NCBI GenBank assembly: GCA_035549015.1
Contig: DASZRW010000112.1
Coordinates: 285-64,284 of the forward strand
Reading direction: 5' to 3'
Source of the DNA: Candidatus Kapaibacterium sp.
Lineage (GTDB): Bacteria; Bacteroidota; Ignavibacteria; OLB7
Length of the DNA stretch: 64,000 bases
Under the pieces are notes generated by a model, which did no database searches, was not told the DNA's origin, and saw nothing but the letters and a program-made list of their open reading frames with translations. Each line of letters begins with the position of its first letter. Positions within the stretch are counted from its first letter, which is position 1. This document shows positions 7,294 through 41,300 of the stretch, piece after piece. Both the position numbers and the translations under genes were made by a program.

Positions 7294-11217
<3,924 letters not shown>

Positions 11218-13905: not shown

Positions 13906-14249
13906 GGGGAGGATGAATGCGCTGGATGCGGGCCGCAGCCGCACGGCCCGGACGGGTTGTCGAGCATATGCGCCGGCCGGCGTACTGCCGGGACCGGAAC
14001 GGTCATGACGCGAATAATACACAACGCGACGGAATCAAACAGGATGGGCGGTAGTATCTCAGTGCGATAGTATCGGCGAGATTTCCTTGCGTCCTCTGCG
14101 GCTGGCCGCCGTAGGGGCGCGGGGAGGAACGCCGACGATGCGACCGTGACGCGGGCTTCAGCGCCGGACTGGTACGGGAATGAAACGGCCGGAACGAGCG
14201 AACGTTCCGGCCGCATCGATACGTGGAAAGGGCCAGGGCATGTGAACCG

Positions 14250-18542: not shown

Positions 18543-18986
18543 CTACGGCTGCTCGATCAGCACGTCACCGTTGCCACTCAGCAGAGCAGATCCGGTAAAG
18601 ATCAACGCGCCCAGGTCCTCCGCTATCTCGAACACGAGATCCGCCAGCGTCTCGTCGGCCTCGAACGATGGGTCTGCAACGACACCGATAAGAAGTTCGG
18701 CATCCACGATCTGTTGTTGTAGACGATCCTTTGCTGCCGGATCCGAAGCCGGCTGTGTCCGGACGAAGTTGTACAGTCCGAGCAGGATTGTCGAGAACTG
18801 GTCGCCCGGTTCCACGCGTATCATGCTGTTCAATGTCAATGTCGCAGCATCCGTGCGCAGAACGATCGAAGTCCATGCCTGATCGCTGCCGGTCACCACG
18901 ATATCGGCGGTGCCATGGCTGCCGAGCACCGAACGTATCCGTGCATGATCGATGACAGGTGAGACTATTGTGCAGAAGTCGCTCAT
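18543..18986 (-). CDS. putative immunity protein for the upstream WHH-nuclease toxin (147 aa)
   Basis: Its ATG overlaps the toxin stop (ATGA at 18983-18986). The product is a small acidic cytoplasmic protein with no signal peptide, sitting in the canonical position of polymorphic-toxin immunity genes. Confidence 0.6.
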   Translation of the reverse strand: MSDFCTIVSPVIDHARIRSVLGSHGTADIVVTGSDQAWTSIVLRTDAATLTLNSMIRVEPGDQFSTILLGLYNFVRTQPASDPAAKDRLQQQIVDAELLIGVVADPSFEADETLADLVFEIAEDLGALIFTGSALLSGNGDVLIEQP

Positions 18987-21900: not shown

Positions 21901-22555
21901 TGAACGCGGCGCGCCGGTCGCGTGCGGCAATCATGATGTCGCGCCAGGTGACCATCGGAGGAAGGCTGCCGGGCGCGCCCTCGGGAACATTGGTCATCAC
22001 GAAGGAACGGGCGAAGCGGTGTACGCCATGTCCGATCCGTTCTGCAACCAGCTCGATGTAGCTCTCTGCGCTTGCGGCACCGGCAGCCTCGGGCACATAT
22101 CGTAGAATCGCACGCTCAACCGCCGATGTTGGCTGGGCCCGGTAGTGCCCAAACCAGAAGGTGATCCACGGGCATCCGATTGCCGACCAGGCAGTCCCCT
22201 CGAACGCGGCCTCGGCAACCTCCATCACCCGTGCTTCCAGGTGATCCAGATAGTCGAGTCGCCGCATCTGCCCAGGCCCCACGTGCTCCGCGTCATCATC
22301 AACCAGCCAGCCGGGAAGCGCGGCAGATCCAGGGTTCGAGCGTGAGAGGGAATCCTGGATGCCGGCGCCTCCTTGTTTCACGTGAATGCCCTGAGGAGGT
22401 CTCAGCTCAGACTCCTGATGATCGGTCCGGTCCGGGCTCATCGCCGGGGCCGGTACATCGATGACATGAACAGGTGGCGACAGACGCCGTGGCACCGGCT
22501 TGGAAGCTGGGGTCGTGGTGGAACTGGTACGCTGGTTGTTGTTGGTGGTGCTCAT
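18983..22555 (-). CDS. polymorphic toxin (1190 aa): N-terminal DUF4157 zincin-like domain, central unknown region, hydrophobic membrane segments, C-terminal WHH (HNH/EndoVII-fold) nuclease domain
   Basis: DUF4157 signature PLPPDVRSRMEEAFGEDVAHVRVHTNDEAAHLAAEEDARAFAVGSDVVFGAGAYRPGTIAGDGLIAHELAHAIQQRG (aa ~276-360). Hydrophobic stretch ISLFAAFVGIALSASGLGAPAAPYFFYIAMATGAVSAG...AIAMDIIGLAASALGAG. The C-terminus ...IPDYTWHHHEDGVRLQLVDRNLHGKTGHSGG matches the WHH motif of HNH/EndoVII toxin domains, followed by a Lys-rich tail. No signal peptide. Confidence 0.85.
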   Translation of the reverse strand: MSTTNNNQRTSSTTTPASKPVPRRLSPPVHVIDVPAPAMSPDRTDHQESELRPPQGIHVKQGGAGIQDSLSRSNPGSAALPGWLVDDDAEHVGPGQMRRLDYLDHLEARVMEVAEAAFEGTAWSAIGCPWITFWFGHYRAQPTSAVERAILRYVPEAAGAASAESYIELVAERIGHGVHRFARSFVMTNVPEGAPGSLPPMVTWRDIMIAARDRRAAFTERMERMRSVMQGLDAAEDGTGRAYSAAVSAAEGDEQARTPDAESRVQQIRARLGDGSPLPPDVRSRMEEAFGEDVAHVRVHTNDEAAHLAAEEDARAFAVGSDVVFGAGAYRPGTIAGDGLIAHELAHAIQQRGSETEEPGGSTASLEYDAERSTRGALARLMSRGMRGARSMAESIRENARPALRSGLGLMRCAKEGPEAVSEAAENRWLIESNQIWIDVVNTKTGEHLLPNPWATGQPDGGMVTSPDPARFPGIVDLHALQQVRILDDSNLQFNLMQGTRKMFGGDQAMVEWLVQWHSKSKYSPESDVIQNGDKYLFTEANSYAVNATISLNGRKLTISQIIDVAGKAELDPVDKQTADAAMRSKGATSYSSLLESIALEYLRRAKEAGRFDREYAEAVGWDAPKSESRDKMSSVRVEKDNVRVNTESPLQVGMKENKQWQKYGENRHSLNEWAEYRKNVSAAVSDVDIHQLIPLRASYVPRTTGKAVDLMMFVGRSVSNPKKVYFLDLSPGAPTTKYSGTDINADTWEFDPKDSGLSAAIDDFRTNNSYPNGIIQFEVPNQGWHKSVRVEVVESNGASFWKKVAEGSGIISLFAAFVGIALSASGLGAPAAPYFFYIAMATGAVSAGTDLYAELRKANPAASAIAMDIIGLAASALGAGSFLKGVAQPVARGLRFAATAGDAAGFVIFSADAYDQARAILNNRRLTDDERQSQMVALFANLLVNGGMLIQGMRSGEKPPPEERPLQSGGTEESATGNGGQATSEIDNSQSKQRTPEAGQEPGTQHGKETADGTDIESAGNTDIESSGNKEVNTPEERATSTMEAGAEGAQKTAKKKIRNGHLAGKQHPKTGVPFNANGYPIFESKFDVHLPPELIGPTVRDGAQFEFATRALRDELERQPGLRKLFTEEQLRAIQAGEERIPDYTWHHHEDGVRLQLVDRNLHGKTGHSGGREATGGRPRTQRKGKKK

Positions 22556-25552: not shown

Positions 25553-28500
25553 TTACAGCGTGAAGATCACGTCGTCCAGATTCCGCAGACCGTAGGAGTT
25601 GGTCACCACCACCTTGTACCGATGGTACACCACGGCACCATCCACAAGCTTCGGAAGCGTTCCGGCATTGTACAGCATGGTGGGCGCCGTGGTTGGTGCG
25701 GCCACGAGCTTCCAGTTGCCGTTGCTCTGCATCTTGTAGAGCGCATAGGTGGACTGCACCGACGTAGCATACCAGGTCAGCACCACGTTGCGATACTCCG
25801 TGAGCGCGTTGTTCTGCAGCGGGTCATGGTAGGCATCGTATGTGGCATCGATTGCCGGCGGCACCGGGTTTGCGGAGTCCACCACATTGACCAGCACGAT
25901 CTCCGACGGGAGTGATTCGATCTCCTCGTTGCGCATCTGGCCAAGATGGAGGTAGCTCAACGGGCGCACGCCCGCAAGGCGATAGAAGATCGGCGAGCCG
26001 AACGGCGGATCGATATCGGCGAACAGATCCCGCACAATCCATCCCTCCAACGTCTGCGCCAGCGTTGCCACATCGAACGTGCCGACAAGCGTCATGGTTC
26101 GCGTGCTGGTTGCATCCGCTGCCGTGAGAGCACGATACAGCCGGATGGCAGTGATACCCTCGGCATCGGGATACGGCGTGACGGTGAAGTTCACGGACTG
26201 CTGCAGCCCGAAACCCTGCTGGGCCTCCGCCACGATCACATGACGAATCGCAGGAGCCGCGGATGGGGCTGCGTTCACCAGGCGTACGGGGCCAAGGATA
26301 TCGCTGACGGGACCAACGGCCAGTGTGTTCGAGATCTCGCGGGCACAGTAGAAGAAGATGTTCCGCGATGCTCCGTCCAGCGCGTAGTCCGTGAACCGGA
26401 TTGTTGTGCCGCTGGCCGTACGCCTCACCATCGGATAGGGATTGAAGCCCGGATCCTCCGCGGTGAGCAGTTCACCGTTGGCATCGCGTACCACGGGCTT
26501 CTGCGACGACGTGACGAGCGCATCGTCCACATCCACCAGGCTTGTCAGGATCGGACGCTCGGTAAGCGGCACCATCGCTCCGGCAATCACCTCGCGGATG
26601 TCATCCAGTGCCGAAGGGATCAGCCCCTGCGCCGGATCGCCCGGCAGACGCGACGGCACGAACGCCTTGCGATACGGCGTCGGGTGCGCGGGGTCGTCCG
26701 GGTCGGCCAGGTGCACGGGATCGAACAGCTCCGCGTCGGGATTGTCAGGCACGGGGAACGCGAAGCCGTTGTAGACCTTGAACCGGCGCGCGTTCGGGCC
26801 GGTGGTATCCACCACTCCCGTTACCAGCTCGCGCCACTGGCTGATGTAGGCGTCATCGTGCGCAACACTGTTCAGGTGCGGACGGATAACGTTGTCGATC
26901 GTATCCTGCTTGTAGAGCGCGCGCAGCACTGCCTCCTCGTCGCCCCGGTAGAACACCGCTCCGTACGGCGTCCGGTTTGCAGCCACCGGCATGTCCACGG
27001 AGCAGGATGACTTGCCGTAGAAGTCCGGGCGCGTTGCATAGGCTGGCCCCGAGAGAGCGAGCGGCTTCACCGGATCGGCAACGTTGTGCGCGATCTGCAC
27101 CGCAGCCGGCGTGAGCGACGATGTGTACCCCCGCGGGCTATCCATCGAGTAGGCGGCGATGTAGGTCTGCCGCGTGGGCGCATCGCCGGTCGGCATGATG
27201 TCCGATTCGGGTATGCCGCCGGCAAGCAGATCGATGTAGCCTCGATACGATGGATGGAAGTTCATCGGCACCGTGGCAAAGCCGGTGTGCGGGCCGATGG
27301 TGTCCGAAGGATCGAAGACGTAGATCGTGAACTTCCCCTGGTCCACCAGGAACTTGATTACCTGCACCGCCTTCATGCGTCCGGATGCGGCGGGATCGGG
27401 AACGCGCACCGTACCACGATAGAACTCCACGAACCATGGGTTGTTGGGGTACTGGACGTTGTAGTCAAAGAGCATGATCGTGGGGCAGGTGATCTTGTAC
27501 ACGCCCGGAGGCGCATCGATCGCCGGCGAGCCGGGTGGAACCGTTATCGTATCCACACGCTCGAGTCTGGCGGCCGGCTCGAACAGCCCGCCCACCGTCA
27601 ACGTTCTGCTCTGGCCGTTCTCCACGAGCTGCTCCGTATATACCGGTACCTGCGGATATGGCAAGCGCGTGAAGTCCGCCAGTTGTATGACGCTGCTCGG
27701 CAGAGCCCTCCACCGCGCGGTGTTCGCAAGGTTCTCAACCACCATGAACGTAGTGCCGGCCTTCGGAGGATCGTACGCCTCGGTCTTCTTCACTCCATTC
27801 TCGTCGGTGGTCTCCATCGGCGTCAGGTGGAACCGGGCGTAATTGTTGCCGGCGGCCGTCACCTCAACCACGATGAACCGATGCGTGCTGGTGGCGAAGA
27901 TGCTCCCCACGAACACCTGCTGCGATATCTGGCTCGAGGTCACGATCGGTTCCACGGTGATCGAGCCCTTCGATGGGTCTGCCGTGAGATCCGGATATGC
28001 ATCGGCCTCCACATACACATCGCCATTCCCGGAGATCGACTGCGGGTTCTTCACCACGCCGCGTATCGATACCGGCGCATCGGTACGGAAGAAGAACTGA
28101 ACACGGTCCGCACTCTGGTAGGCGATGTTGTGCACATGATTCCAGTCGAACAGCACGCGCGTCCGCTTGCCGTGGGTTGCGATCTGCGCCTGTTCCGACA
28201 GCGACGTGAGCACCGGTGGAACCTCGCGCTGGATGTACTGCACCGCGAGGTTCGCCGGCGGGAGAAGCGAATTGTACTTCGGGAAACTCGTCGTGATCGT
28301 GTTCGAATACACCCCAATCGCAGAGGCGCGCGAGAACCAGTTGATCCCGAAGATCCCGTACCTGCGAGCGAAGTCGTTCCCCGGCAGGTTCTCGATGCGA
28401 TGCACGAATACCGGGTTACCCGTGTCCGGAATGCCGTGCAGCTCGGGATGCCCGTCCTGATCGGCATACGGAACGTATCCACTCGGCTCGTACTCACCGA

Positions 28501-31500
28501 AGTCGTTCACGGGATATACCTGCCGCCAGTCGCTCGGAGAAGTGCCGTCCGGTTTGGTGATCCGGATGCCGAACTGCATCGGCTTCGTCGCCGTACCATG
28601 ACTGAACTCCGTGGTATCGGCAAAGAAGTCTCCAACGGGAAGGTCGATCGCCACCGTTCCACGATTCACGTTCAGATAGCGTGCATCGGCATAGCGTGTG
28701 TATCCCTGGGAGTCCGTGAAGTCCTCGTGCACCAACGGCTCGATGCTGGCGATCGTCACGGGTGCCGGCAGCCGGACGTCGCTCCGCCCGGTTGGAAGCG
28801 AGAGATAACGATGCGTCATCGCGGTGATGCGTTTCGCCGGGTCAGCCGGTGTCACATACTCGGCCATGTAGATATAGCGCTGTCCGGCGGCGTCGCCGGC
28901 AAGCGGCACATCCGGATCGATCATCCCGAGCCCAAGCATTCGTGCCACGTGGTAGTCCTGTGCGGCCAACAGCAGCATGCGGAGTGCACTGATGTTGATC
29001 GAGCCGCTGTCCGTGGACAACACGGGAGCCTGCGTCAGCCACGCCTCCACCTGAGCGGGATCGACACTCCTCTGCAGGTACGACTCCACCGCCGTGCGTA
29101 TGGACTGCTTTGGATCGCGCTCGAATGCCGGGCGTGAGGGATCGTACGTGGGATCTGCATGACCGTCCGGCAGATAGTGACGGTTGGGAAGCCACCGGTC
29201 CAGGTAGTTCACCACCTTCACCCGTGGGGCCTGGCCCTCCAACGTGTGCCCGTACTTCGGCCATGCTCCGTCCACGTTGAATCGCGTTGTATCCTCCAGG
29301 CGCCTGGCAGCCTCCGTGGTATCCAGTGTCAGCGCATAGTTCCCGATCTTCTTCCAGAGGTACCGGCGATGCGTGGCGGTATAGAAGTCCGCATAGGTTT
29401 CCACCAGCAACGCGCCAGGCGCCCCACCCGAATAGCGGAACCGGAAGTATTGCACGGCCTCGCTCATCACCTTGTGGCGGGTGCCATTCCCCACGAAGCG
29501 CCTGCGCGCGGAGATGAACAGCGGGGCAGCGGCCGCCGAGGGATCCTCGTTGAGCGATATCGCCTCCACACGCGTCGTCATCGCCGCAAGCGACGGCGAC
29601 GTGAGCTCGAACGCAAACATCAGGTTCAGGTCCGTCTCCACCTCCACCGTACCGGTGAAGTTCGCAACGATGTAGGCCACGTCCGCTCCAACGTTCTTCG
29701 GATCGGTCGGCGTGTTGTTCTGGCGCAGCGTCCGGTACGATCCGTCGTCGACAAACCGCAGCGTCAGCGTAACAACGGCCGAGGGGAACAACTGCCTGTC
29801 CACCTGAACGTTCGTATACGTCCAGGTCCAGACACCGCCGTCCTGCGAGACATCTGTGGGACGTTGCTGTGTGGTGGCGCTGAGATCGATCGTGGCCGGG
29901 AAGTACTTCGTTGTATCGGTATCCACGTAGCGCGTGCGATAGATCGCCACGTAATCGTCCGGCTTGTTGTACCCGTACGACGCGAAGTATGGGCTTCCCG
30001 GGCGTGTGTACGGTCCCTTCGGCAGATGACGATTCCCGAGGTCGTTCAGGAACGCCCAGCGCAGGTGCACGCCTCCGGCGCTGCCGTCGCCGCCGTTGTT
30101 GAATCCGTCGGAACCAACAGCCTGCAGGTAAAGGAACTGCGACTGGATGGTGTAGGCCTGCGTATCCTCCTCGCCGCATACATTGCGGCCGACTGCATAG
30201 AGCTTGCTGCGAAGCAGCACGGTTGCCTGGCGCAACTGATCGAGCACCGGGGCGAAGTATGCTACCACCGCGGCATCGGGCGAGCTGCAGCGCAGGCAGT
30301 AGGCGGTGAAGAAGCTGATCGCCACCCGCGCCCGCATGCAGGTTGTAGTGGCGCATGGATCGTCCGCGATCGGCAGGCCAAGCAGCACCGCCTTCGGGAT
30401 CACGAGCGCGTAGAGCGCATCGATCGCCGTACGCAGATCGCTTGGATTCCCCTCCACAAGGTTCACCAGGTCCGTTGCGCCGGCGCGTTCCTGGGCGCTC
30501 ATCCCTCCCACCATCGCACATGCCTTGCAGATGCATTCCAGCAGCTCCAGCCAGTCGTGGCGGAACGCCGTCATGGCCGTTTCCGGCCGCGGCAGGTCGT
30601 TGGCGATCGTGGCTGCGTATGCGGCCGACTGCGCCGCAAGCTGTGCATCCAGATAGTCCACAACCACGCGGGCCTGTGGGGCAAGCTCCTGATACCGTGA
30701 GAATGCCGTGGCCAGCAGGTCCACAACGAACTCCAGCCGGTTGCAGAAGGCGCCGCCGGGAAGCATGGTCTGCGTCAGCCGCAGATTCCGCGCGAGCGAT
30801 GCGATCTCCTGCTGCGTGCGCGTGAAGATGTCCTCCAACGCAATCACCGCCGGCGCACCGGAGGGGGGATCGACGCCGCAGAGCAGATCGGAGTAGCCAA
30901 CGAGACCGTGCAGGTGCGCGCAGATATCAACGGACTCCGCGCAGAACACGACGCCGGCCGCAGCCAGTTGGGCTGTCCACGTGGCATAATCGGCAATGAA
31001 CGTGGCGAGCCCGGAGTTCAGAAGCGTTGCCACGCCGCTCGGCATCGTGCGGCACGGTCCGCATGTCAGATGCAGTGTCCGCAGCACTTCGAAGAGCTTG
31101 TACGCATCGCCGGATGCCAGGCTGGAGGATGGAGCACCGGCGCCGGCTGGAGCGGGCGTGATTGCGTTGAAGAGTGCCGTGATCCGCGAGGAGAACAACG
31201 AGGTGAAGCTCGCCCGCAACGTCGAAGACAACTCGCCGAACCGTAGCGCCGCCACGTACAGGCACTCCAGTCTCCATATCCAGGAGGGGCAGGTGTCGGT
31301 GCAGGTGCCGGTGAACGTGGCGCCGAGCTGCGTGCGCAGACGGTCGTACTCGCCTCGGAGCTGCACGTACTGCGCTTCGAGCTGCGTGCGCTGCGCCGAG
31401 GGAATCGAAAGTCCGTACATGCACGCGAGGCCGAGGAATACCGTGGAGCGCCGAAGCAGCTCGCAGCAGTCCGTGGGGGGCGAGCCAGCGGCGCTCATGG

Positions 31501-34500
31501 GAATGGCGCTCGTATACGGACTCGTGGAGGCGGCCGCCAGCGTCTGATAGATGGCCATGATGTCATCGCAGATCACCGCGTCGAACTGCGTCAACGTTCC
31601 GGGATCGTTCCCCGAAGCCGGCCGGCGCAGCTTGCACAGCTTGCAGAGACAGACGAACAGCGCGAACCAGCGATCGCAGTCCACACAGCTCGCGGCGCAC
31701 GCTACCGGCTTCTCCGCGAGCTGCGGAGCGAGCGTGGCAAGGCTCGCGCAGACACGCGTGATGAAGCAGTCCAGCGACCGACGCACGTATGGGGAGACAC
31801 GGCGGCTGCCGGAGTACACCACCATCGCGAACCCGAACATCACGCGCAGACGCTCGCACAACGACGGGCCGGTGCCCGGAAGCACGCTGGCACCGATCCC
31901 GGTCTCGAGCTGGAGACGGGGCGTAAGCTGTTCGATGCAGGAAAGGCTGGCCTGGAGCTGAATCATCGCCGAGGTGGACCAGATCGAATCCCCCACCGGG
32001 ATATCCACGCAGCAGAGCATGCGGTACATGCGCGGGATCATCGTGAGCTTGTCGCAATCGGCATCAAAGGCCGCGCACGGATCGGAGACGGTGGTCCCCG
32101 CGTTGCAGCAGCTGTCGCTCATCAGACTCCCGGTGGCGCAGCTGATGCTGCCGTCGCCGCCGAAGAACATGTTCGTCGCATAGAGGTTGTGCACCTCGGC
32201 GCGAAGGCAGTGGCGTCCCGGACCGAGATAGAGGGCGATGTCGAACGTCTCGTTGTTGACCATGATCTGCGGCGCCACGGAGTGCACCAGCGTTCCGTCA
32301 ACGTAGATGTCTGCGTAGTCGTCCGCGAAGTACGTGAACGTGATGCGCACGTCGCTGGCGCGGCAGAGACAGAAGCAGCGCTCGAACATCGTTATGCCGA
32401 TGTGGCTGTCGGACGCGCTGGCGTTCAGGGAAATCCAATGCGAGCTCCCGATCACCGGTCGCGATGTACCGCTGGTCACCGTCACCGTAGCCTGCGCAGG
32501 ATTCTTCACCTGGTCATCCACCGTGGTCATCACCCACGGCGCCGTGCCGGTAGCGAGCGTCAACTGCGGTATCGTGCAGCTCGTGCCGCAGAACGGAAGG
32601 CCGTCGTACACATCCTGCACCTGATCCATCTGGGCCTGCAGGTAGGAAACAGTGCCGGAGTCCATGCTGTCGCAGCAGGCGCAGTGTGTTGCGAACCAGT
32701 CGAGCAGGCTTCGGTGAATGTAGGCCCAGCGGTCGATCCCCTGTGCCATGCCGGCAAGCGCCGGATCCGTGGTCACGGTGGTATAGGTCCCTTCCACCAA
32801 CGTTCCCACACCCGTGTTGATGGCGTTCACCGTCTCGGCATAGGTGGGATTCGTCACGTCCGTGTAATAGCGATCGTGATGGCTCACGATGCAGTCCAGC
32901 ACGACGATCCAGTCCTCGCAGAGCGTGTTGACGTTGGAGCAGAGCTCCGGATGCGCATTGTTGAAGGCCGCGTAGGCGTCTGCGAACGCATCCATGAGCG
33001 CATTGAGCGCTGCAAGAAGAATGGGATCGATGCTGCCATGCTCGCAGAGCGAACGGAGGCGTGAGAGAATGGCGGAGAGCTTGGCGCAGAGCATCGCAAA
33101 CGATGGAGTCGTGGCCGGCGGTGCGTAGAGGTTCGAGCCATCGTTGAGCAACCAGTCCAGCTGATCGATGATCGCCCCGAGATCGTCCACGAAGTCATCG
33201 ATCACATCCTGCGGCAGAATCGTCCGCTGGCCGCAATACTTCTTCAGGCAGCGAAGCTTCGGCAGCCAGTTGTCGCACCATCCTGAGGGAATGGAGGTGC
33301 TCGTGCTGCACAGGTTCGGATAGGCCGCCTGGAGCGCATCGACTGCGCTCTGCAACTGCTGCAGCAGGGTCTTCAGGGTGATCAACAGAATCGGATCGAC
33401 GCCGTTTGCGCAGTAGGTGGTGATGTCGCTCTGGATGGTGGAGACCTTCAGGCAGAACAACGCGATGTCATCCAGTTCCGCGGGATCGCTCCGCCCTGGA
33501 ACCGAGTGGTAGATGGCGTCGACGGCAGCGCCCAGCTTGTTGAGCACGGTGGTGCGCAGGTCGTCGGTAAGAATGGCCTTCTCCGAGCAGATGCGCGAGA
33601 GGCAGCCGAGGAGCGAGTTCCACGTGCTGCAATCGGTCATCGGAACCGTGTCCGCACAGATGTCGCCGTAGGTGGCCTTGACTCCCGTCATCGACGACTC
33701 CAACCCCACGAGCAGGTTGTCGAGCTGCGTACGGCGGTTGTGCGACCACGGGAAGAGCGCCTTTGTGCAGAGGAAGGTGAAGTATCCGTCCAAAGTCTGC
33801 ACCATCTGGCAGAGCTGGCTGATATCATGATTCAACTGCCCCACGGGCGGCCGCATATTCAGGAACGTATACGCCGAGGCGAGCTGCGCGTTCAGTGCCG
33901 TGTAGAGTGCGTTCTGCAGCGAGCCGGGGAGCGTCGCCCACTTGTCGCAGAGCTTCTTCAGGCAGTCCAGCAGATCGAGCCAGCGCTTGCAGTAATCCTT
34001 CTCCGGCGGCCGGCAGAGCGTAAGGCTCTCACCTTCCATCACATCGCTCAGCAGTTGCCGCTTGTCGTACAGCCGCGTATACCAGGGTTCGATCGTGGCG
34101 GCCCACGGCGGCAGCGTCAGACGGCTTGCGCCGCACACACGACACCACCAGGCCCAGAAGCTGACGATGTAGCTCAACCGGTCGCAGTCGCTCGAGGGCG
34201 CCGGCGAGATCCAGCCCGGCATTCCCTCGCCTACGGCAATTCCCTGGATCTGCGGGAAGAGGCTGTTCACATCGGCTGCGATGTTGCCGTCGTAGTAGGT
34301 GGTGACGTCCGAGGGAAGCGACGGGCGCCGCGCGCAGAACCGGCAGAAACAATCCAGCAGATCGCGCCAGCGCTTGCAGAGGTCCATGATCTGCGGATCG
34401 ATCACGAGATAGCTCACCGCCACCACGTTCTCGAACGCCTCCTCGTACGGCGAGGTGAAGTCCTCGATAGTATAGCGCTGCGCCCATGTCAACGTGCTCA

Positions 34501-35140
34501 TCGTGGCCATCGCCGCCATGGTGATATCGGTCACGTACTGCGACGTCTCCAACAGGGTCTGCCCGGTGGGGGCCGGGCTTGCTCCGATCGCCGTGGCAAC
34601 CCGCTCCAGCCTGGGCAGTTGCGTGTTGATCGTTGCCTGCAGCGTCGCCACCTCCGCGATACCCACGAAGTTGTTGATCTGCGCCACGCCCAGGCATAGC
34701 CAGCGATAGAAGTTCGAGTAGTTGTAGCGATTGCGGCACAGCCAGTCCGGATCGTAGGAAACCGGATAATCGCGGAAGTCCACCTGGAACGAAACGGAGA
34801 CGGAGCTCGATCCCGCCGGCCCGGACAACATCACCGTCATCGAATACTGCTGCGTGGGAGGCGCCGGCGGTATCGAATACGTGAGCGAGGCGGAACCGCT
34901 GGTTGGTGCCATCGGGTTGCCGCCGCTTATCTGCACATTCACCGGAAGCGACATCGATCCGAACGGTGGCGGATCGAGACCCTTCAGGTGATCGGCGAAC
35001 GTAACAGGAAGGCCCGGCGTCAGCATCGACGTCAGAGTCGTGATCTCCCCTCCGGCGTTGATGGTGATGGTGTACTGGCCGGGCGAGATATTACCGGGCG
35101 CCGTGATCGAAGTCAGCGAGAATAACGCTACCTGGCTCAT
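25553..35140 (-). CDS. giant leaderless protein (3195 aa) with ~9 copies of a novel Cys-containing helical repeat in its N-terminal half. The C-terminal half is beta-rich, of unknown fold, with an FN3-like end
   Basis: A single uninterrupted 9.6-kb ORF with protein-like composition. Repeats include CKRWRDLLDCFCRFC..PSLPSDV, CKRWLDLLDCLKKLC..ATLPGSL, CSTWNSLLGCLSRIC..AILTDDL, CDNWLPKLRCLKKYC..TILPQDV, CEDWIVVLDCIVSH, CDRWFALFVCLCKLC, CPSWIWRLECLY and HDWLELLECICKAC. No signal peptide, no recognisable catalytic motif. Confidence 0.8.
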   Translation of the reverse strand: MSQVALFSLTSITAPGNISPGQYTITINAGGEITTLTSMLTPGLPVTFADHLKGLDPPPFGSMSLPVNVQISGGNPMAPTSGSASLTYSIPPAPPTQQYSMTVMLSGPAGSSSVSVSFQVDFRDYPVSYDPDWLCRNRYNYSNFYRWLCLGVAQINNFVGIAEVATLQATINTQLPRLERVATAIGASPAPTGQTLLETSQYVTDITMAAMATMSTLTWAQRYTIEDFTSPYEEAFENVVAVSYLVIDPQIMDLCKRWRDLLDCFCRFCARRPSLPSDVTTYYDGNIAADVNSLFPQIQGIAVGEGMPGWISPAPSSDCDRLSYIVSFWAWWCRVCGASRLTLPPWAATIEPWYTRLYDKRQLLSDVMEGESLTLCRPPEKDYCKRWLDLLDCLKKLCDKWATLPGSLQNALYTALNAQLASAYTFLNMRPPVGQLNHDISQLCQMVQTLDGYFTFLCTKALFPWSHNRRTQLDNLLVGLESSMTGVKATYGDICADTVPMTDCSTWNSLLGCLSRICSEKAILTDDLRTTVLNKLGAAVDAIYHSVPGRSDPAELDDIALFCLKVSTIQSDITTYCANGVDPILLITLKTLLQQLQSAVDALQAAYPNLCSTSTSIPSGWCDNWLPKLRCLKKYCGQRTILPQDVIDDFVDDLGAIIDQLDWLLNDGSNLYAPPATTPSFAMLCAKLSAILSRLRSLCEHGSIDPILLAALNALMDAFADAYAAFNNAHPELCSNVNTLCEDWIVVLDCIVSHHDRYYTDVTNPTYAETVNAINTGVGTLVEGTYTTVTTDPALAGMAQGIDRWAYIHRSLLDWFATHCACCDSMDSGTVSYLQAQMDQVQDVYDGLPFCGTSCTIPQLTLATGTAPWVMTTVDDQVKNPAQATVTVTSGTSRPVIGSSHWISLNASASDSHIGITMFERCFCLCRASDVRITFTYFADDYADIYVDGTLVHSVAPQIMVNNETFDIALYLGPGRHCLRAEVHNLYATNMFFGGDGSISCATGSLMSDSCCNAGTTVSDPCAAFDADCDKLTMIPRMYRMLCCVDIPVGDSIWSTSAMIQLQASLSCIEQLTPRLQLETGIGASVLPGTGPSLCERLRVMFGFAMVVYSGSRRVSPYVRRSLDCFITRVCASLATLAPQLAEKPVACAASCVDCDRWFALFVCLCKLCKLRRPASGNDPGTLTQFDAVICDDIMAIYQTLAAASTSPYTSAIPMSAAGSPPTDCCELLRRSTVFLGLACMYGLSIPSAQRTQLEAQYVQLRGEYDRLRTQLGATFTGTCTDTCPSWIWRLECLYVAALRFGELSSTLRASFTSLFSSRITALFNAITPAPAGAGAPSSSLASGDAYKLFEVLRTLHLTCGPCRTMPSGVATLLNSGLATFIADYATWTAQLAAAGVVFCAESVDICAHLHGLVGYSDLLCGVDPPSGAPAVIALEDIFTRTQQEIASLARNLRLTQTMLPGGAFCNRLEFVVDLLATAFSRYQELAPQARVVVDYLDAQLAAQSAAYAATIANDLPRPETAMTAFRHDWLELLECICKACAMVGGMSAQERAGATDLVNLVEGNPSDLRTAIDALYALVIPKAVLLGLPIADDPCATTTCMRARVAISFFTAYCLRCSSPDAAVVAYFAPVLDQLRQATVLLRSKLYAVGRNVCGEEDTQAYTIQSQFLYLQAVGSDGFNNGGDGSAGGVHLRWAFLNDLGNRHLPKGPYTRPGSPYFASYGYNKPDDYVAIYRTRYVDTDTTKYFPATIDLSATTQQRPTDVSQDGGVWTWTYTNVQVDRQLFPSAVVTLTLRFVDDGSYRTLRQNNTPTDPKNVGADVAYIVANFTGTVEVETDLNLMFAFELTSPSLAAMTTRVEAISLNEDPSAAAAPLFISARRRFVGNGTRHKVMSEAVQYFRFRYSGGAPGALLVETYADFYTATHRRYLWKKIGNYALTLDTTEAARRLEDTTRFNVDGAWPKYGHTLEGQAPRVKVVNYLDRWLPNRHYLPDGHADPTYDPSRPAFERDPKQSIRTAVESYLQRSVDPAQVEAWLTQAPVLSTDSGSINISALRMLLLAAQDYHVARMLGLGMIDPDVPLAGDAAGQRYIYMAEYVTPADPAKRITAMTHRYLSLPTGRSDVRLPAPVTIASIEPLVHEDFTDSQGYTRYADARYLNVNRGTVAIDLPVGDFFADTTEFSHGTATKPMQFGIRITKPDGTSPSDWRQVYPVNDFGEYEPSGYVPYADQDGHPELHGIPDTGNPVFVHRIENLPGNDFARRYGIFGINWFSRASAIGVYSNTITTSFPKYNSLLPPANLAVQYIQREVPPVLTSLSEQAQIATHGKRTRVLFDWNHVHNIAYQSADRVQFFFRTDAPVSIRGVVKNPQSISGNGDVYVEADAYPDLTADPSKGSITVEPIVTSSQISQQVFVGSIFATSTHRFIVVEVTAAGNNYARFHLTPMETTDENGVKKTEAYDPPKAGTTFMVVENLANTARWRALPSSVIQLADFTRLPYPQVPVYTEQLVENGQSRTLTVGGLFEPAARLERVDTITVPPGSPAIDAPPGVYKITCPTIMLFDYNVQYPNNPWFVEFYRGTVRVPDPAASGRMKAVQVIKFLVDQGKFTIYVFDPSDTIGPHTGFATVPMNFHPSYRGYIDLLAGGIPESDIMPTGDAPTRQTYIAAYSMDSPRGYTSSLTPAAVQIAHNVADPVKPLALSGPAYATRPDFYGKSSCSVDMPVAANRTPYGAVFYRGDEEAVLRALYKQDTIDNVIRPHLNSVAHDDAYISQWRELVTGVVDTTGPNARRFKVYNGFAFPVPDNPDAELFDPVHLADPDDPAHPTPYRKAFVPSRLPGDPAQGLIPSALDDIREVIAGAMVPLTERPILTSLVDVDDALVTSSQKPVVRDANGELLTAEDPGFNPYPMVRRTASGTTIRFTDYALDGASRNIFFYCAREISNTLAVGPVSDILGPVRLVNAAPSAAPAIRHVIVAEAQQGFGLQQSVNFTVTPYPDAEGITAIRLYRALTAADATSTRTMTLVGTFDVATLAQTLEGWIVRDLFADIDPPFGSPIFYRLAGVRPLSYLHLGQMRNEEIESLPSEIVLVNVVDSANPVPPAIDATYDAYHDPLQNNALTEYRNVVLTWYATSVQSTYALYKMQSNGNWKLVAAPTTAPTMLYNAGTLPKLVDGAVVYHRYKVVVTNSYGLRNLDDVIFTL

Positions 35141-35361: not shown

Positions 35362-38300
35362 TCACGTGATCGTCAACGTCACGGTTTCGGTTGGAACCGT
35401 CTGCTCGTTGAACTGGCCGCCGCCGGCATCCACGAGCACTGTAGCGACGTCGTATGTCTGGCCGTTGAACAGCCGGTACTGGAACCCGATCTGAACCGTC
35501 CCGGTGGCCACCACACCGGTACGCGTAGAGATGAAGATGTTCGCGAGATCCTTCGAGAAGATCACCCGCTGATCCGATGCGGCACCGAACCCGGTCAACA
35601 CGATTCCCTTTGCCACTTCCGCCGCCGGAAGCTTCGGATCGTTGAACGGCTCCGGACTGCGAACCAGGATGCCGAGCACCGGGCCGCCGGCGCTCTCGCG
35701 CACGATCGTGAACTCCGTCGTCACCGCCGGCGGCAGCATGTTGATTCGCAGCACACCGTTCACCAGGGCGTCGTACGGAAGCGGGTACTGCGCGCGCAAC
35801 GCCTGGTACGGAGTGGTGTTCGGCACCGTCCCCTCGATCAACGTGCGCGCGGTTGCCACGTCCGTTCCCAACGGAAGCACGTAGTCGAAGATTGCCTTCT
35901 TCGGCTGCCCTCCATCGTTCGGCATCAGATAGCTGCCGATATGCTCCGCAAGGCTGCGATACCGCGATGTCTGGAACACGTAGCGATGCACTTCCCGGTC
36001 CACCGGCGAATCCCCGTCGTTGAAGAACACCGCCGTGAACGACGCCGCATACATGCGATTCGGTTCCAGTGTCACGGGCGTCACCGTGCGGCGCGCCGGC
36101 GGCGGTGTGTTCGGGTCCAGCTGCTCCAGAGGTGTCAACGTTGCACAGTCCGAATTCGGCTTGTTCTGTATCATATACTTGAACAGCCGGAATTCCTTCG
36201 GCTCCTTCGGCGCCGGGTCCTGCTCCCATCGCGGCTCGTCCACCACGATCGCATCGCTCGCCGGCATGGTTGGATCCAGCAGAACGGTCTTCAACGCAAC
36301 GTTCGCGCGCGGCAGCCCCTGGTACTGGTTCCACGTGGCGAACATGGTGTCCATGTAGTCCACGCGATAGTAGAGCGCGAGATGCGCGGATTCGTAGTAG
36401 AGCGGCTTGGCACCGATGATGTTGCCGTCGGCGTTGGGATACGACCGCTCGTAGTCCACATAGTGCTTCAGGTTCGCGTACTTGTACTCCGTCTCGCCAT
36501 GGCTCTGCACAAGCCCGGCATAGGCTTCGTTGTAGGCCGGCGGATTCGCCGCGCCGATCTCGTGGAAGTGGCCGATCGGGCCGGCGGTCCGGAATCCGAA
36601 CGTGTAGTACTTCGTGTACGAGGTGCCGCCGCTGACTACCTCCCTGGTCTTGATCATCACCGCATAGGTCGTGTTCGGCCGCCAGAGCGGCTGCGGGAAG
36701 TCCTTGAGCGCTACCAGCATGTCGTTGGTTGCGTTGCGCACGGCCGTCGGGTCCGGGAGGTCGTCGTTGTAGACATGGTCGGCCTCGGCAAGCCAGCAGA
36801 TCTCGTGCACGTAGGTGTAGCACGGGGCGTTCTGCCCGGTGTCGCAGTCGGCGGCCGGCACGATGGTGATCCGGTCGATCGGCACGTCCTTGTTGTCGTA
36901 CGCCACCTGCTGCGTGAGCTCGGCGCGGGTTCTGGTCTCGCGTTTCATCAACGGATCGTACGGCCCGGCAACCGGTGGCGGGCAAAGCCGTCCGTGGCCG
37001 CCGTGCGTGCCGGTACCATGCACGGCATCGCGCAGATCGTTGTAGCTGGTGAAGATCGACTCCAGCCCGCCCGAAGCATCCACGTTCGCGTAGTCCAGTG
37101 CACGCACGGCGAAGTAGTTGGCGATGGTGCGGCTCTTCCTGCACAGCCCAACGCCCTGGCCTGCCTGGGCCGTTGCCCCCGCCGCATCGGCGAGCGCGAG
37201 CAGCTTCACGTACGCGCCATCCAGCAGCGCGCCGAATGCGCCCTCGAAGCCGGTGCCTGTATCACTGAAGACATCGGCAGGGAGACGGCTGCGGACCGCA
37301 CACGTACGGGCCAGGCAGCGGAACACCGCCAGCCAGCGCTCGCAGAGCGTCTGGCATTGCCCGCTTGCAGCGCTGGACCCCGAATAGTCCGCAACGAGCA
37401 ACTGCAGCGCGTTGTAGAAGGCGAGCATCTCGCTCTCCTGATGCGGGGAGACTCTGGAGAGATCCGTGTAGGCAATCACCAGGATCTCCACATAGCGCGC
37501 CACCATCGTGCAGAAGTCGCTCGCCGGCCAGCTCGCCGGCACGGACGCAAGGCCGTAGATGCTGGCGAGCTGATTGGCCATCGGCGCGAAGTTCTGCATC
37601 AACGTGATGATGTTCGCCAGCGGATACGTGGCGAGTTGGTTCGATGTCGGTGCCACGTTGCAGAGCGCGCGATAGTTCGCTATCAGGGTTGTACGGCGCG
37701 TAACGGGATCCACATGCGGCGAGTCGCAGATCGCCACACGGGAGTCCGCGTCCAGAGCGGAGAGCGCACTCTGGAGCGATGCGAACGCCGATTCCAACTG
37801 CGGCATCGCCCCGGCAACCGCCGTGCTGACCGACGCCGGGAAGCTCTGCCCGCGCAGGCAGCTTGGATAGACATTCGCCAGAATGTTCCGCACGAAGAAC
37901 ATCACGATATCGAGCGGCGCATCGAGCGGCAGCAGGATGATGCCGTTCGATTCCGGCACCACATGTTCCAGCGCGTTCACTGCGGAAAGGATCGAGAAGA
38001 GCACGTTGAAATCGTTCGCCATCTGCTGCACGACGGAGTCCGGCAGATACGTATGGCGATCCAGCAGTGACCTCAGGCACTCCACGATCTCGATCAGGCG
38101 ATTGCAGTCGTTGGAGAGGCCGGATGCGTTGCACACCACGCCGGTGAACGGAGCCAGCTTGCCTGCCTTGAAGGTCACGAGCCCGGCTTCGAAGGCGGCG
38201 ACATGATCGTTCAGATAGGTGACCGCATCCGTCGGCGCGGATGCGCACCGGGTCTGGAGCATCGTCAGCATGTTCGCGATCGCGTTCACCTGGTCGCACC

Positions 38301-41300
38301 GGTTCGTGCTGGCTGCCGCACCGGAAAGCGGTCGCCCGGTGGTGAACGCATCCAGTGCAACGGCGGAGTACAGGCCATCGATGCGATCGCGGAAGAACTG
38401 CTCGTCGGCTCCGAGCGTCCCGAAGGAATTGCAGATCGAGCAGAGACACTCCAGCGCATCGATCCACTCCGTCACGAACGTCTCCACGCTCTCGGTAGGG
38501 CCGGTAAGGTCCTGCCCCTTCACATCCTGCTCGTACGCAGACACGGAGCTCTGCAGGTCTGCGTAGAAGTTCCGCACTCGCAGCGAGAGCGTTCCATCCA
38601 GCGCATCCGGCGAAGCCAGCGCCAGCGTCACCACGCGCAGTGCCCGCCGCAGATCCGGGCAGAGCGAATTGGACTGGGATGTTGCATCCAGTCCGAACAG
38701 GTGCTCCAGGCTGACGATGGTGTCGTTGAAGCCGTTCAGGAGCGACAGGATCGCCGGTATCGCCTGCGACCCGCTCTGCGTATCGAAACAGAGGAGCCGC
38801 GGGATTGCGATCAGGTCGCGCCAGGCACCGCCGCAGCTCGAGGCCGAGCCTCCTCCCGAACCGCATGCATCGCCACTGCTTCCCGCAAGCGCCGTGCGAA
38901 CCTGCTTCACCACGCTGGCAAGCGGTTCGTAGAGCGGCGCGTTGAATTGATCCACCAGCGTGAGCGTGGCCGTTTGAATCGCACCGAGGTTCAATGTGAG
39001 GAGGGCGAAGAACTCGGCGATCGTCCGCACCTTCCCGCTCCGGTCAGTCTGCCCGGCGGGCTGGTTCATATGAACGCCGAGCCCGTTGGCCTGCTCCGTG
39101 AGCGCATCGTAGATCCAGTCCACCTCGGGATCCACCAGCGCCGTCATCATGGACTGCACATAGGCCGGGAACGTCGAGCGATTGTCATAGAGCGTTCCCA
39201 GGCAGACCACAACGTCGAACCACTTCTCGTAGAACTCGTTCTGCGGAGCGGGCGGCGCATCCGGTTCCTCGCCGGACTCCGCGAGCAGTGAAACGTACTG
39301 GTCCGTGTAGCGCTTCACATCCTGATAGAAGTACTGCACGTTCTGCTGCAGCGCCGTGGGCGGGCGATCCTTGCCGGCCAATGCAACGATCACCGTGCCG
39401 AGCATTTCGCGAAGGCGTTCGCAGAATGTAGGGGCCGCCGCCGGTGCGCTCAGATGAAAGAGCTGGCGGAGGTAGTAGTTCGTCTTCGCAAACGACTTGG
39501 ACATCAATGTGCCGATGGCGGCCACGGGCGCGAGGTTCACGTCCGGTCCGTTCGTTCCGCTGCAGAGCGTGCGCGTGAAGCGCGGCATTGCGCGCATCAT
39601 CTCCCAGAACGAATCATCGCCGCCACCTGCCGATGGTCCCGAAGGAACGGCATCCCAGCTGTTCGGCCGCGTCGACACACCGGCCTGCTGGCTGGACGGC
39701 GGAGCAGATGCATACCCGCGATAGTAGGAGATCGTTGCCTTCGTTGCCGAGGTGGTCACCTTCATCCAGACCTTCGTGACCGTCGCTGGGAAATAGAACT
39801 CGATGCGATTCCCCGGGTCGATGCGCAGCGCGGCACTCTTGTCGAAGCCGCTGAAGCTTACCACGCGTGCCGATCCGTTGTCCGTGCGGAAGGCCAGCTT
39901 CCGGTCGAACACCCTGGTCTGTGCCGCGAACGGCGGCGCCGAAGTCATCCCCTCCCAGTCCAGGCAGGTCGGGTCAACCGGCGCAGGAGGGCAGAGAAGC
40001 ACTGTCGGCGGGAAGCCGAGTTCCGTGGGGGGCACGTCCGCGTTCTGCCCCAGCGGCGTGCGCCCGAGAAGCCGCAGCCGCGTGTAATGGCTCGGATCGG
40101 AAAGCTGCCATGCGCCATACTTCAGGCGCCGCGCCACCTCGGTCTCGAGCTGGGTAGAGTTGTTGAGAAGGTCCGGGTACTTGCTGATGAGCAGGCGCCG
40201 AAGCGGCGAGTTGGCATGCTCCATCTCGTACGGCAGCCATGCGCCGCCGTCACGATAATAGATCGCCACTTCGTCCACATTGTACTCGTGATGCACCTGC
40301 GGCGAGTGTCCCGGCTGCGGCGGCACGTACTCGTCGTTCTTCAGATCCGTGGTCACCGGGCCAAGCTTCGCGATGGACGAGCTGTCGCCGTTCGGCTTCA
40401 CCGGCTTGGAGAAGTCGATGTCGATGAACGAATCCACAGGGATGGTGAAGTGCGCGAAGTCTCCGATCCACGTGTTCACCGGCGCATCGTTCGATCCCGT
40501 GGATCCTATCACCGTTGGAGCCGGAATCGCGGGCGCGGACTGGTTCTGGTCCGGAGTATACGTCTCCGCCAGGAAGTTGACCGGGAAGCTCTCGCCGGTC
40601 AGCATGTGCACCGCACGAACCGGATGCGCGCCATCCACACGATACTGGTCCAGCTTCCGCGCGGCGCTTGGCTGGAAGAGGCCGATCTCGTGCAGGTTCG
40701 GAGTGGGATCGAACTCCCATGTCAGATCCACCGAGAGGCCGAGGTTGGGAATCGGCCACGGCAGGTCGAGCTCGATGCTGAAGCTGCCGCCGATGATGAA
40801 CGGGTGCGGCGCCTCGCCACGCAGCGTGGCCGTCACCGTAAGCCGGAACCCGATGCCGAACACCTTCAACTCCGCATAGCCCATCAGCTTCATCCATGCG
40901 CCGATCTGCGCCGGATGGAAGTTGATCTTTCCTCCCACCTCCATGCTCGCACCAAGTCCAACCTTCGCGATGCCGCAGTCCTTGACGATCTTCAGCGACA
41001 CACCGGCGCCGGCACGGATGCCGCTCGAGGAGAGCATCAGGTAGGCCCAGCCGTTGAGGATCTTCAACAGCGTCGCGGAGATGCGCTTGGCCTCCGGCGT
41101 ATCGCGGCCGATGTTGATGTACCAGCTCGAAGCGTTGCCGAAGAAGAACGCCAGCTCCATCGTGGCATCGATCTTCAGAATCTCTCCGCCCGAATCCGGC
41201 TTTCCTTCCTCGGGATCGGGCAGGTGGTAGTTGACGCCGATCGCCGCTTCCACGCTCTTCCTGGAGAGCGCGAACGAGGCGAAGAACGGGGGATCGTCCG

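Follow-up and report, generated by a model that had tools for sequence, protein, structure and literature searches.

A previously undescribed cysteine-bearing four-helix repeat in two neighbouring giant proteins of Candidatus Kapaibacterium

The window, a 64,000-nucleotide stretch of DNA from Candidatus Kapaibacterium sp., carries a conserved cluster of three giant genes, C, B and A, on the minus strand. Protein A is identical (100%) to the hypothetical protein VHI13_17920 of an NCBI MAG named 'Candidatus Kapabacteria bacterium', and its gene has a GC3 of 0.81. The ten repeat units of A are arranged as five units, a PA14/CBM-like beta-sandwich and five further units, all N-terminal to a conserved 'A-core', whereas the array of B is inserted mid-way in a conserved 'B-core'. 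The features are located as follows.

43896-51701, minus strand: gene C, 2601 aa, first gene of the conserved cluster (Pfam, NCBIfam, synteny, C-core homology)
35362-43773, minus strand: gene B, an ORF of 2803 aa (VHI13_17925, 2779 aa when counted from the NCBI start at M25)
39271-39576, minus strand: B unit 1, aa 1400-1501, partial and divergent (hhalign 56%, E 1e-4)
38935-39270, minus strand: B unit 2, aa 1502-1613 (HMM); its only Cys in this genome is C2
38515-38934, minus strand: B unit 3, aa 1614-1753, divergent type (hhalign 95%, E 3.8e-8)
38146-38514, minus strand: B unit 4, aa 1754-1876 (HMM, alignment)
37795-38145, minus strand: B unit 5, aa 1877-1993 (HMM, alignment); includes CNRLIEIVEC
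37384-37794, minus strand: B unit 6, aa 1994-2130, divergent type (hhalign 89%, E 2.2e-6)
36982-37383, minus strand: B unit 7, aa 2131-2264 (HMM, alignment); includes CERWLAVFRCLARTC
25553-35140, minus strand: gene A, 3195 aa (ORF list, translation)
34412-34759, minus strand: A aa 128-243, which contain an invariant C135-x13-C149 and may form an N-terminal cap or half-unit
34031-34411, minus strand: A unit 1, aa 244-370; Cys 255, 264, 266, 269, 319, 333, 336
33665-34030, minus strand: A unit 2, aa 371-492; Cys 376, 384, 393, 398, 444, 458, each in 16/16 orthologues
33317-33664, minus strand: A unit 3, aa 493-608 (HMM, AF2 model, orthologue conservation)
32951-33316, minus strand: A unit 4, aa 609-730 (HMM, AF2 model, orthologue conservation)
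32585-32950, minus strand: A unit 5, aa 731-852 (HMM); C3 and C4 both replaced in this genome (H755, A806)
32096-32584, minus strand: A aa 853-1015, between the two helical arrays, a beta-sandwich like PA14 / CBM6-35-61 / GH2 sugar-binding domains
31703-32095, minus strand: A unit 6, aa 1016-1146, divergent type, canonical only in the helix 3-4 half (hhalign 88%, E 3.5e-6)
31331-31702, minus strand: A unit 7, aa 1147-1270 (HMM, Cys conservation)
30971-31330, minus strand: A unit 8, aa 1271-1390 (HMM); C3 and C4 both replaced in this genome (A1298, A1346)
30581-30970, minus strand: A unit 9, aa 1391-1520, divergent type (hhalign 92%, E 5e-7)
30161-30580, minus strand: A unit 10, aa 1521-1660 (HMM, Cys conservation)
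25553-30160, minus strand: A-core, aa 1661-3195, homologous to stand-alone hypothetical proteins of 1500-2300 aa

The four-helix module of ~120 residues, present in tandem copies in A and B, is a real repeat family that was previously undescribed. A first-pass annotation had reported a helical, Cys-bearing repeat common to the two largest proteins, and this is borne out by HMM iteration, profile-profile comparison and the AF2 helices. The motifs it quoted lie where it had placed them, on the minus strand: CKRWRDLLDCFCRFC covers A aa 255-269 (nt 34334-34378), CKRWLDLLDCLKKLC, CSTWNSLLGCLSRIC and CDNWLPKLRCLKKYC start at A aa 384, 504 and 622, and CNRLIEIVEC and CERWLAVFRCLARTC at B aa 1890 and 2144. 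An HMM built from five A units recovers the remaining A units and the B units, and its iteration converges on eight units in A and four in B. In addition, profile-profile comparison (hhalign) reveals divergent units in the gaps between them, at A 1020-1153 and 1382-1524 (units 6 and 9) and B 1587-1740 and 1970-2117 (units 3 and 6), with the probabilities and E values listed above; control regions score 0.1%. HMM units and divergent gap units thus amount to 10 in A, close to the 'at least 9' first counted, and to 6-7 in B over nt 36982-39576, more copies and a wider span than the 4-5 first placed at ~37.7-39.3 kb. The A array extends from aa 244 to ~1660 (nt 30161-34411), beyond the earlier limit of 30940, with a period of ~120 aa in place of the proposed ~100 aa. 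The periodicity itself survives the iterated HMM and the profile-profile comparison with its clean controls, and no repeat was found at the DNA level. In A aa 128-243, 16/16 orthologues retain a Cys at both 135 and 149; the segment matches the unit profile weakly (hhalign probability 5%) and is partly helical, at low confidence, in the AF2 model.

The units are predicted by AF2 at pLDDT 80-90; C1 to C3 fall on helix 1, whereas helix 3 holds C4 and C5. The true signature is a twin C-x13-C, in which helix 1 bears C-x2-W-x5-C-x4-C and helix 3, ~45 aa downstream, bears the second C-x13-C. C1 and C3 are 14 residues and ~21 Å apart on one helical face, and C4 and C5 are likewise ~21 Å apart on helix 3. 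The two helices carry matching hydrophobic stripes (conserved columns 4, 7, 11, 14, 18 and 66, 69, 73, 76, 80), and each column pair adds up to 84, the relation needed for antiparallel packing. A Cys-Cys spacing of 14 is the sole enriched spacing in A aa 121-1660 (15 observed vs 3.8 expected; 0 of 2000 shuffles reach 15). Moreover, almost all Cys of the A repeat region are invariant across orthologues with just 31-39% identity.

The Cys residues come and go in pairs. Presence/absence covariation over 172 units gives phi 0.73 for C1-C5 and 0.84 for C3-C4, values that overstate independence because the units share descent. The helix-3 partners of C1 and C3 sit 45-75 aa downstream; the motif therefore joins helix 1 to helix 3, and the three helix-1 Cys (C-x8-C-x4-C) do not form the single metal site or disulfide hairpin initially suggested. 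Joint losses at orthologous columns, each leaving the other pairs intact, are found for A5 755/806 (two lineages), A8 1298/1346 (five sequences, every neighbouring Cys still invariant), A7 1155/1240 (two sequences), A7 1169/1226 (one) and B5 1866/1948 (two). Only two changes in A are unpaired; P0054 carries both, one at Cys 1360 and the other within the Cys-Cys doublet 1225/1226. B contains several C3 or C4 without a partner and keeps the fold though most of its Cys are gone. Paired presence together with independent loss of each pair is the pattern expected of disulfides, not of one metal site. Between the two options of the first-pass annotation, disulfides are thus favoured, in the form of a staple from helix 1 to helix 3 and not of an adjacent-helix hairpin.

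Disulfide-stapled four-helix units forming a rigid stalk or scaffold are the best explanation of these observations, and one that we rate slightly above an even chance. On helices 1 and 3 alike, the C-x13-C Cys take the first and last positions of a hydrophobic stripe 15 residues long, and C1-C5 and C3-C4 disulfides would staple the two helices at both ends. About half of the units probably have a third disulfide, formed between C0 in the linker and C2, which is buried in the middle of its helix. Units joined head to tail would build a stiff, chemically robust stalk or scaffold, which in A may comprise the two five-unit arrays flanking the PA14/CBM-like beta-sandwich, N-terminal to the A-core. 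Such a rod shape is tentative, since an AF2 pTM of 0.40 is too low to fix how the units are arranged relative to each other. The repeat number in relatives is 10, 9, ~5 and perhaps 1-2, and a varying unit number is as expected of a spacer.

The domain between the A arrays has a beta-sandwich/jelly-roll fold of the galactose-binding-domain-like class (Foldseek matches include MpIBP PA14 structures). It has no match in Pfam, so it is not assigned to PA14/CBM6-35 by sequence; from its modelled fold, it is probably sugar-binding. The PA14/CBM-like fold is normally extracellular, and a low background Cys content is typical of proteins working outside the cytoplasm. Cys make up ~5% of the arrays vs 0.2% of the A-core and a median 0.37% of A-core homologues. 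Both the fold beside the arrays and the scarcity of Cys elsewhere argue for extracellular life, and we infer an oxidising (extracytoplasmic) location in which the disulfides would form. No signal-peptide-like N-terminus was detected in A, B, C or ~99 members of their families; the disulfides would therefore need an unrecognised export route or release by lysis, which is the main problem for the stalk role. The strong disulfide signature without signal peptides implies either such a route for ~3000-aa proteins of the FCB group or another, cytoplasmic purpose of the thiols.

In protein C, an S8 peptidase is joined to the 'C-core' of aa 1504-2006 and to a C-terminus that resembles pyroglutamyl peptidase; no repeat was found in it. 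The A-core contains 3 Cys only and has 41 homologues; its AF2 model is unusable (pLDDT 41). BLASTP matches it, at E 0 and 8e-132, with genes downstream of the B-core in Longimicrobium and Mucilaginibacter. The C-core/B-core/A-core system occurs in Bacteroidota, Longimicrobium, Pyrinomonadaceae and Hyphomicrobiales, and none of the libraries searched annotates this operon, which encodes giant hypothetical proteins. The arrays were added in particular lineages to what is otherwise a widespread, wholly uncharacterised operon. A units 6-10 match B units 3-7 in collinear order (E 1.6e-59, 577 columns) and, judged from sequence, the two are one five-unit block. A and B may therefore be held together by their two versions of this block lying next to each other. 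The first reading had seen only the first half of each unit and had overlooked the divergent copies, the intervening PA14/CBM-like domain and the nature of the arrays as additions to a widespread two-protein core.

In an alternative that we consider unlikely but worth weighing, the giant proteins are cytoplasmic and their Cys serve as ligands of a metal or form metal-thiolate sites (Zn, Cu(I), Fe-S), the arrays being a metal-stabilised scaffold, store or sensor. The lack of a Sec signal throughout the family is in line with this, as are the C-terminal domain of C, since pyroglutamyl peptidases are usually cytosolic, and the DinB/YfiT fold class, which consists of metal- and thiol-binding proteins. 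Some features speak against the staples as well, among them the partnerless C3 and C4 of B. C2 is the best-conserved residue (168/172 units), it is kept even as the sole Cys of B unit 2, and no covarying partner of it was found across the 172 units. Likewise, units 1, 7 and 10 have odd Cys counts and extra C-x-C and C-x2-C motifs, forming an invariant C-x-C-x2-C plus C-x2-C, and the CxxC couple 1615/1618 is lost jointly in 7 sequences. However, one ion cannot bridge the distance between C1 and C3 or between C4 and C5, and a four-Cys site would not tolerate independent pair losses such as that of C3/C4 in five A8 orthologues. A conserved His, Asp or Glu partner is absent (the top His column reaches 8%), B folds with most Cys gone, and the neighbouring beta-sandwich and Cys-poor remainder again speak for extracellular life.

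A bolder extension, in which we place rather little confidence, regards C, B and A as the elaborated form of a widespread apparatus that leaves the cell without Sec signals, the repeat being a disulfide- or redox-locked extensible stalk co-evolved in two subunits. If true, the system would be a giant machine of a new class, acting at the surface or by injection and possessing an export route of its own.

It is improbable that the paired Cys are redox-active, as a thiol-disulfide relay or switch in which a thioredoxin-like WCxxC in unit 1 is the active site and stiffness or activity follows redox state. The invariant VSFWAWWCRxC of A unit 1 is the best-conserved stretch of the entire repeat region, eight unit-1 orthologues match Pfam Thioredoxin below threshold (best E 1e-3), PDB thioredoxins match at E ~0.1, and many DinB-fold enzymes use low-molecular-weight thiols. 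The match is nevertheless confined to a 12-residue motif and scores under the Pfam gathering cut-off, and the AF2 model is all-helical there, so that a thioredoxin fold is rejected. Moreover, CxxC is confined to units 1, 7 and 10, WCxxC to unit 1, and most pairs are positioned as structural end-of-helix staples.

Searches of Pfam, NCBIfam, PHROGs, PADLOC and PDB sequences return nothing for the repeat, which agrees with its earlier description as an unnamed family. Apart from the thioredoxin motif, no Pfam family is found in 73 units at E up to 10, and a PDB profile search with the unit gives chance matches only. With these searches empty, the His triad absent and the HMM and HHalign scores significant against clean controls, membership of a described family (DinB, CHCH, Sel1/Hcp, saposin) or a compositional artefact is very improbable.

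The DinB/YfiT-like (S-transferase-like) superfamily resembles the repeat in predicted fold only, a four-helix bundle with helix 1 antiparallel to helix 3. Its hallmark is a metal site of three conserved His, or two His and one Asp (PMC10950700). This triad is absent from the 172-unit alignment, where no column exceeds 8% His; identity is ~10%, and DinB, DinB_2, DUF664 and MDMPI_N profiles have no match in the 73 units (E up to 10) or in full-length A and B. DinB domains occur singly or as dimers without Cys staples, in contrast to the 10-unit tandem array here. CHCH or twin CX9C (and twin CX3C) proteins share the logic of two antiparallel helices with two Cys each and two disulfides, an arrangement that the covariation and paired losses of C1-C5 and C3-C4 would fit. 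However, their spacing is x9 or x3, not x13 (four turns), and their motifs lie on consecutive helices rather than on helices 1 and 3 of four, ~45 aa apart, which excludes membership; the repeat carriers, unlike CHCH proteins, are bacterial, giant and tandemly repeated, with no sequence match. The Sel1-like repeats of Helicobacter Hcp are bacterial alpha-helical tandem repeats, each locked by an inter-helix disulfide, in the form of 36-44-aa two-helix units of small Sec-secreted proteins. The units here differ in their ~120 aa, four helices, up to three Cys pairs and hosts of ~3000 aa without signal peptides, and no Sel1 match is found in Pfam.

In giant adhesins such as Marinomonas MpIBP, which has a PA14 sugar-binding domain, the extenders are Ig-like beta-sandwiches that are rigidified by Ca2+ and contain almost no Cys, and export proceeds through type I secretion, with RTX repeats. 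None of this applies to A or B; A is alike in having a long stiffened array that carries a PA14/CBM-type ligand-binding domain. Stapled four-helix units as rods may also interest protein design.

A profile search across 1.84 billion representative proteins yields only ~25 true carriers, each of them a giant protein resembling A or B. Repeat-bearing versions are known from a handful of MAGs only, so the immediate impact is moderate. The twin-Cx13C four-helix repeat constitutes a new domain family for Pfam or InterPro, with a disulfide map predicted by pair-wise Cys covariation, and provides a marker and handle for an operon that encodes giant hypothetical proteins and is broadly distributed. 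This operon is experimentally tractable through cultured carriers, among them Mucilaginibacter sp. KACC 22773 and Nubsella zeaxanthinifaciens.

The window encodes three giant proteins, named C, B, and A, whose ORFs are arranged head to tail:

Positions 43896-51701, minus strand: gene C, ORF of 2601 aa
Positions 35362-43773, minus strand: gene B, ORF of 2803 aa
Positions 25553-35140, minus strand: gene A, ORF of 3195 aa

All three ORFs show the high GC3 of real genes. A MAG of 'Candidatus Kapabacteria bacterium' encodes hypothetical proteins with 100% identity to A (VHI13_17920) and B (VHI13_17925). In C, an S8 peptidase is fused to a ~500-aa segment and to a C-terminus that weakly resembles a pyroglutamyl peptidase. 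The segment (aa 1504-2006) matches a stand-alone ~700-aa protein of Mucilaginibacter and Longimicrobium operons.

A and B contain tandem copies of a Cys-rich unit. The interval 30940-34420, in which the first-pass annotation had proposed a helical repeat, corresponds to A aa 241-1400, and every motif quoted there is present at its place. The repeat is genuine, as an HMM built from five units (A aa 244-849) recovers further units in both A and B. Iterated over all homologues, the search converges at eight units per A-like and four per B-like protein. In profile-profile comparison with the unit profile, the inter-unit stretches 1020-1153 and 1382-1524 of A score 88% and 92%, and 1587-1740 and 1970-2117 of B (numbering of the homologue P0010) score 95% and 89%, whereas control regions score 0.1%; B 1376-1488 reaches 56%. 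These stretches are divergent copies, so that A contains ten units (A1-A10, in two arrays of five) and B six or seven. The earlier count of at least nine copies in A is therefore about right, and the period is ~120 aa rather than ~100 aa. The repeat is absent at the DNA level, and the duplications are accordingly old.

AlphaFold2 modeling of A aa 120-1020 with nine orthologues gave a mean pLDDT of 71.8, rising to 80-90 within units; the pTM of 0.40 means that the model does not establish the relative placement of units. Each unit is predicted to be composed of four helices. Helix 1 carries C1-x2-W-x3-L-x-C2-L-x3-C3 and is followed by the 'LP' turn, which had been noted earlier as a second motif, then by helix 2, a long Pro/Gly-rich loop, and helix 3 with C4-x13-C5. 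Helices 1 and 3 share the same hydrophobic stripe (conserved columns 4, 7, 11, 14, 18 and 66, 69, 73, 76, 80), which begins and ends with a Cys on either helix. Moreover, 14 is the sole enriched Cys-Cys spacing in A aa 121-1660 (15 observed versus 3.8 expected; 0 of 2000 shuffles). The signature is thus a twin C-x13-C, and the C-x8-C-x4-C triad previously taken as the core motif was a misreading. An antiparallel arrangement of helix 1 and helix 3 predicts the register seen, in which paired columns sum to 84.

The pairing of the cysteines was traced through their presence and absence. Across 172 units, C1 is coupled to C5 (phi 0.73) and C3 to C4 (phi 0.84). Because the units are related by descent, orthologous columns were examined as well.

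Joint losses of cysteines at orthologous columns of A and B
A5, C3/C4, columns 755/806: both lost in this genome and in the homologue P0051
A8, C3/C4, columns 1298/1346: both lost in five sequences
A7, C1/C5, columns 1155/1240: both lost in two sequences
A7, columns 1169/1226: both lost in one sequence
A10, CxxC couple, columns 1615/1618: both lost in seven sequences
B5, C1/C5, columns 1866/1948: both lost in two sequences

All other Cys surrounding a lost pair are invariant. Only two unpaired Cys changes occur in A, both in the homologue P0054: one affects Cys 1360, the other a single Cys of the doublet 1225/1226. Self-contained Cys pairs whose two members disappear together are the classical hallmark of disulfides, and such losses speak against metal sites built from four Cys, also where such a site would lie between consecutive units. 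A four-Cys site at unit interfaces was rejected, since C3/C4 are kept or lost whatever unit follows. In addition, C1 and C3 lie ~21 Å apart on one helical face, too far to share a ligand. Of the two alternatives raised in the first-pass annotation, a metal-binding site or a disulfide-stabilized hairpin, disulfide stabilization is therefore probably correct and a single metal site unlikely. No partner could be detected for C2, which is Cys in 168 of the 172 units. B is looser, with several Cys gone and some C3 or C4 unpaired; evidently the fold survives without its staples.

Searches of A and B against Pfam, NCBIfam, PHROGs, and PADLOC returned no match, in line with the initial view that the repeat belongs to no named family. 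PDB sequence profiles gave chance matches or none for A, B-core, and A-core (the cores being conserved, array-free portions of these proteins). When 73 single units were searched against Pfam at E values up to 10, the only recurrent signal was a sub-threshold thioredoxin match. This look-alike stems from the invariant 'VSFWAWWCRxC' of unit 1 (A aa 326-336, window 34133-34165, minus strand), which mimics the thioredoxin active site FWAxWCGPC; a thioredoxin fold was rejected, as the model is helical there. With Foldseek against the PDB, the helical units gave nothing significant, whereas the β-sandwich between the two arrays of A (aa 853-1015) matched PA14, CBM35, CBM6, CBM61, and a GH31 N-domain (E 4e-4 to 4e-3). 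In the model the units appear to resemble DinB in fold only. They lack the His triad, a defining feature of DinB (PMC10950700), and match no DinB profile, so that membership was rejected. For DUF6603, a Pfam family matched in a few distant B-like proteins, no publications were found. The repeat is novel, although its broader kind, a Cys-stapled helical repeat or four-helix bundle, is already known.

The repeat is confined to a few uncultured lineages. The unit profile found 28 matches at E <= 1e-3 among 1.84 billion representative proteins. About 25 are genuine, comprising A-like giants (3043-3220 aa, plus one 2186-aa variant), B-like giants (2633-2881 aa), or fragments. Three borderline matches of the exhaustive search were dismissed as chance: P0070 and P0072, which have no Cys, and P0071, a PDI-like protein drawn in by the thioredoxin-like motif. 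Among 185,579 species genomes, the A array occurs at only five loci in four MAGs, labeled Kapaibacterium, 'Bacteroidota' (two), and 'Alphaproteobacteria' (one). The last (CAZJYH010000103.1, 'uncultured Alphaproteobacteria bacterium') carries a Kapabacteria-type A locus of 39% identity, and this contig is probably mis-binned. In Bacteroidota bacterium ES1.bin.100 there are two distinct A-like loci, which share 40% and 33% identity with the query, indicating that the system can exist as two paralogous copies. The 2186-aa A-like variant (P0057) has only ~5 units, and two A-core proteins (P0081, P0113) carry at the N-terminus one or two segments weakly resembling the unit. The three proteins suggest that array lengths form a graded series, and the weak segments hint at the module's origin.

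The C-B-A gene order is conserved. B shares homology over its first ~1300 aa and its last ~460 aa with the B-core proteins (~2000 aa) of Longimicrobium, Saprospiraceae, Mucilaginibacter, and Flavobacterium, from which the array is absent; when the middle part of ordinary B-core proteins was searched for the repeat, the matches were no better than those of a reversed-sequence control. Similarly, aa 1661-3195 of A have stand-alone homologues of 1500-2300 aa, the A-core proteins, encoded immediately downstream of B-core. The arrays have thus been added, in particular lineages, to an operon that is itself widespread. In Mucilaginibacter sp. KACC 22773 (CP117883.1) and a Longimicrobium metagenome contig, this operon encodes large hypothetical proteins: C-core (~700 aa), B-core (~2000 aa), A-core (~1600-1850 aa), and others of 810, 1097, and 1511 aa. 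They match nothing in Pfam, NCBIfam, or the PDB, NCBIfam gave nothing on the neighboring genes, and no library searched annotates the core operon. Further A-core homologues come from Pyrinomonadaceae, Hyphomicrobiales, Nubsella, and Flavobacteriaceae; AlphaFold2 gave no usable A-core model (mean pLDDT 41). Units 3-7 of B match units 6-10 of A collinearly (E 1.6e-59 over 577 columns) and units 1-5 of A more weakly (E 6.7e-35). The two collinear blocks have the same sequence of divergent and canonical units, which indicates that a five-unit block was copied between the two genes.

We lean toward a reading in which the arrays act as a stiff spacer or scaffold. Each four-helix bundle would be stapled by two, probably three, disulfides, and the tandem units of A would display the PA14/CBM-like module, while the array of B would provide a corresponding block, which may pair with A. 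Circumstantial support comes from the Cys content, ~5% in the arrays versus 0.2-0.4% in the core regions, and from the variable unit number among relatives. Neither A, B, C, nor ~99 family members have a signal-peptide-like N-terminus, whereas neighboring secreted proteins score clearly, so that the disulfide reading must assume an unknown export or release route. The same observation would suit thiols that bind metal in the cytoplasm, an unlikely arrangement given that Cys pairs are kept or lost autonomously and that C1 and C3 are so far apart. It would also suit cytoplasmic redox chemistry centered on the WCxxC of unit 1, which we regard as very doubtful.

Several other large genes lie on the minus strand of the window. 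A 1190-aa protein (18983-22555) that combines an eCIS_core/DUF4157 domain (aa 277-353) with a Colicin-DNase/WHH nuclease at its C-terminus resembles a polymorphic toxin; it was rejected as a system member, since it is not syntenic with C-B-A in related loci. An 809-aa protein (14250-16679) has a clear signal peptide, Gly-rich β-helix-like repeats, and a near-identical internal duplication of ~75 aa, with GAATALANYGTIGGGL...GGDGNQ occurring twice. A 786-aa ORF (11662-14022) contains many 'GNDxY' repeats, has no Pfam match, and would have a lipoprotein-like hydrophobic N-terminus if started at an internal Met; judged by GC3, the longer opposite-strand ORF 11227-14070 is probably spurious. Finally, a 1354-aa protein (7294-11358), which has Sortilin-Vps10/BNR (Asp-box) repeats and a segment weakly similar to LolA, appears to have no relation to the repeat.
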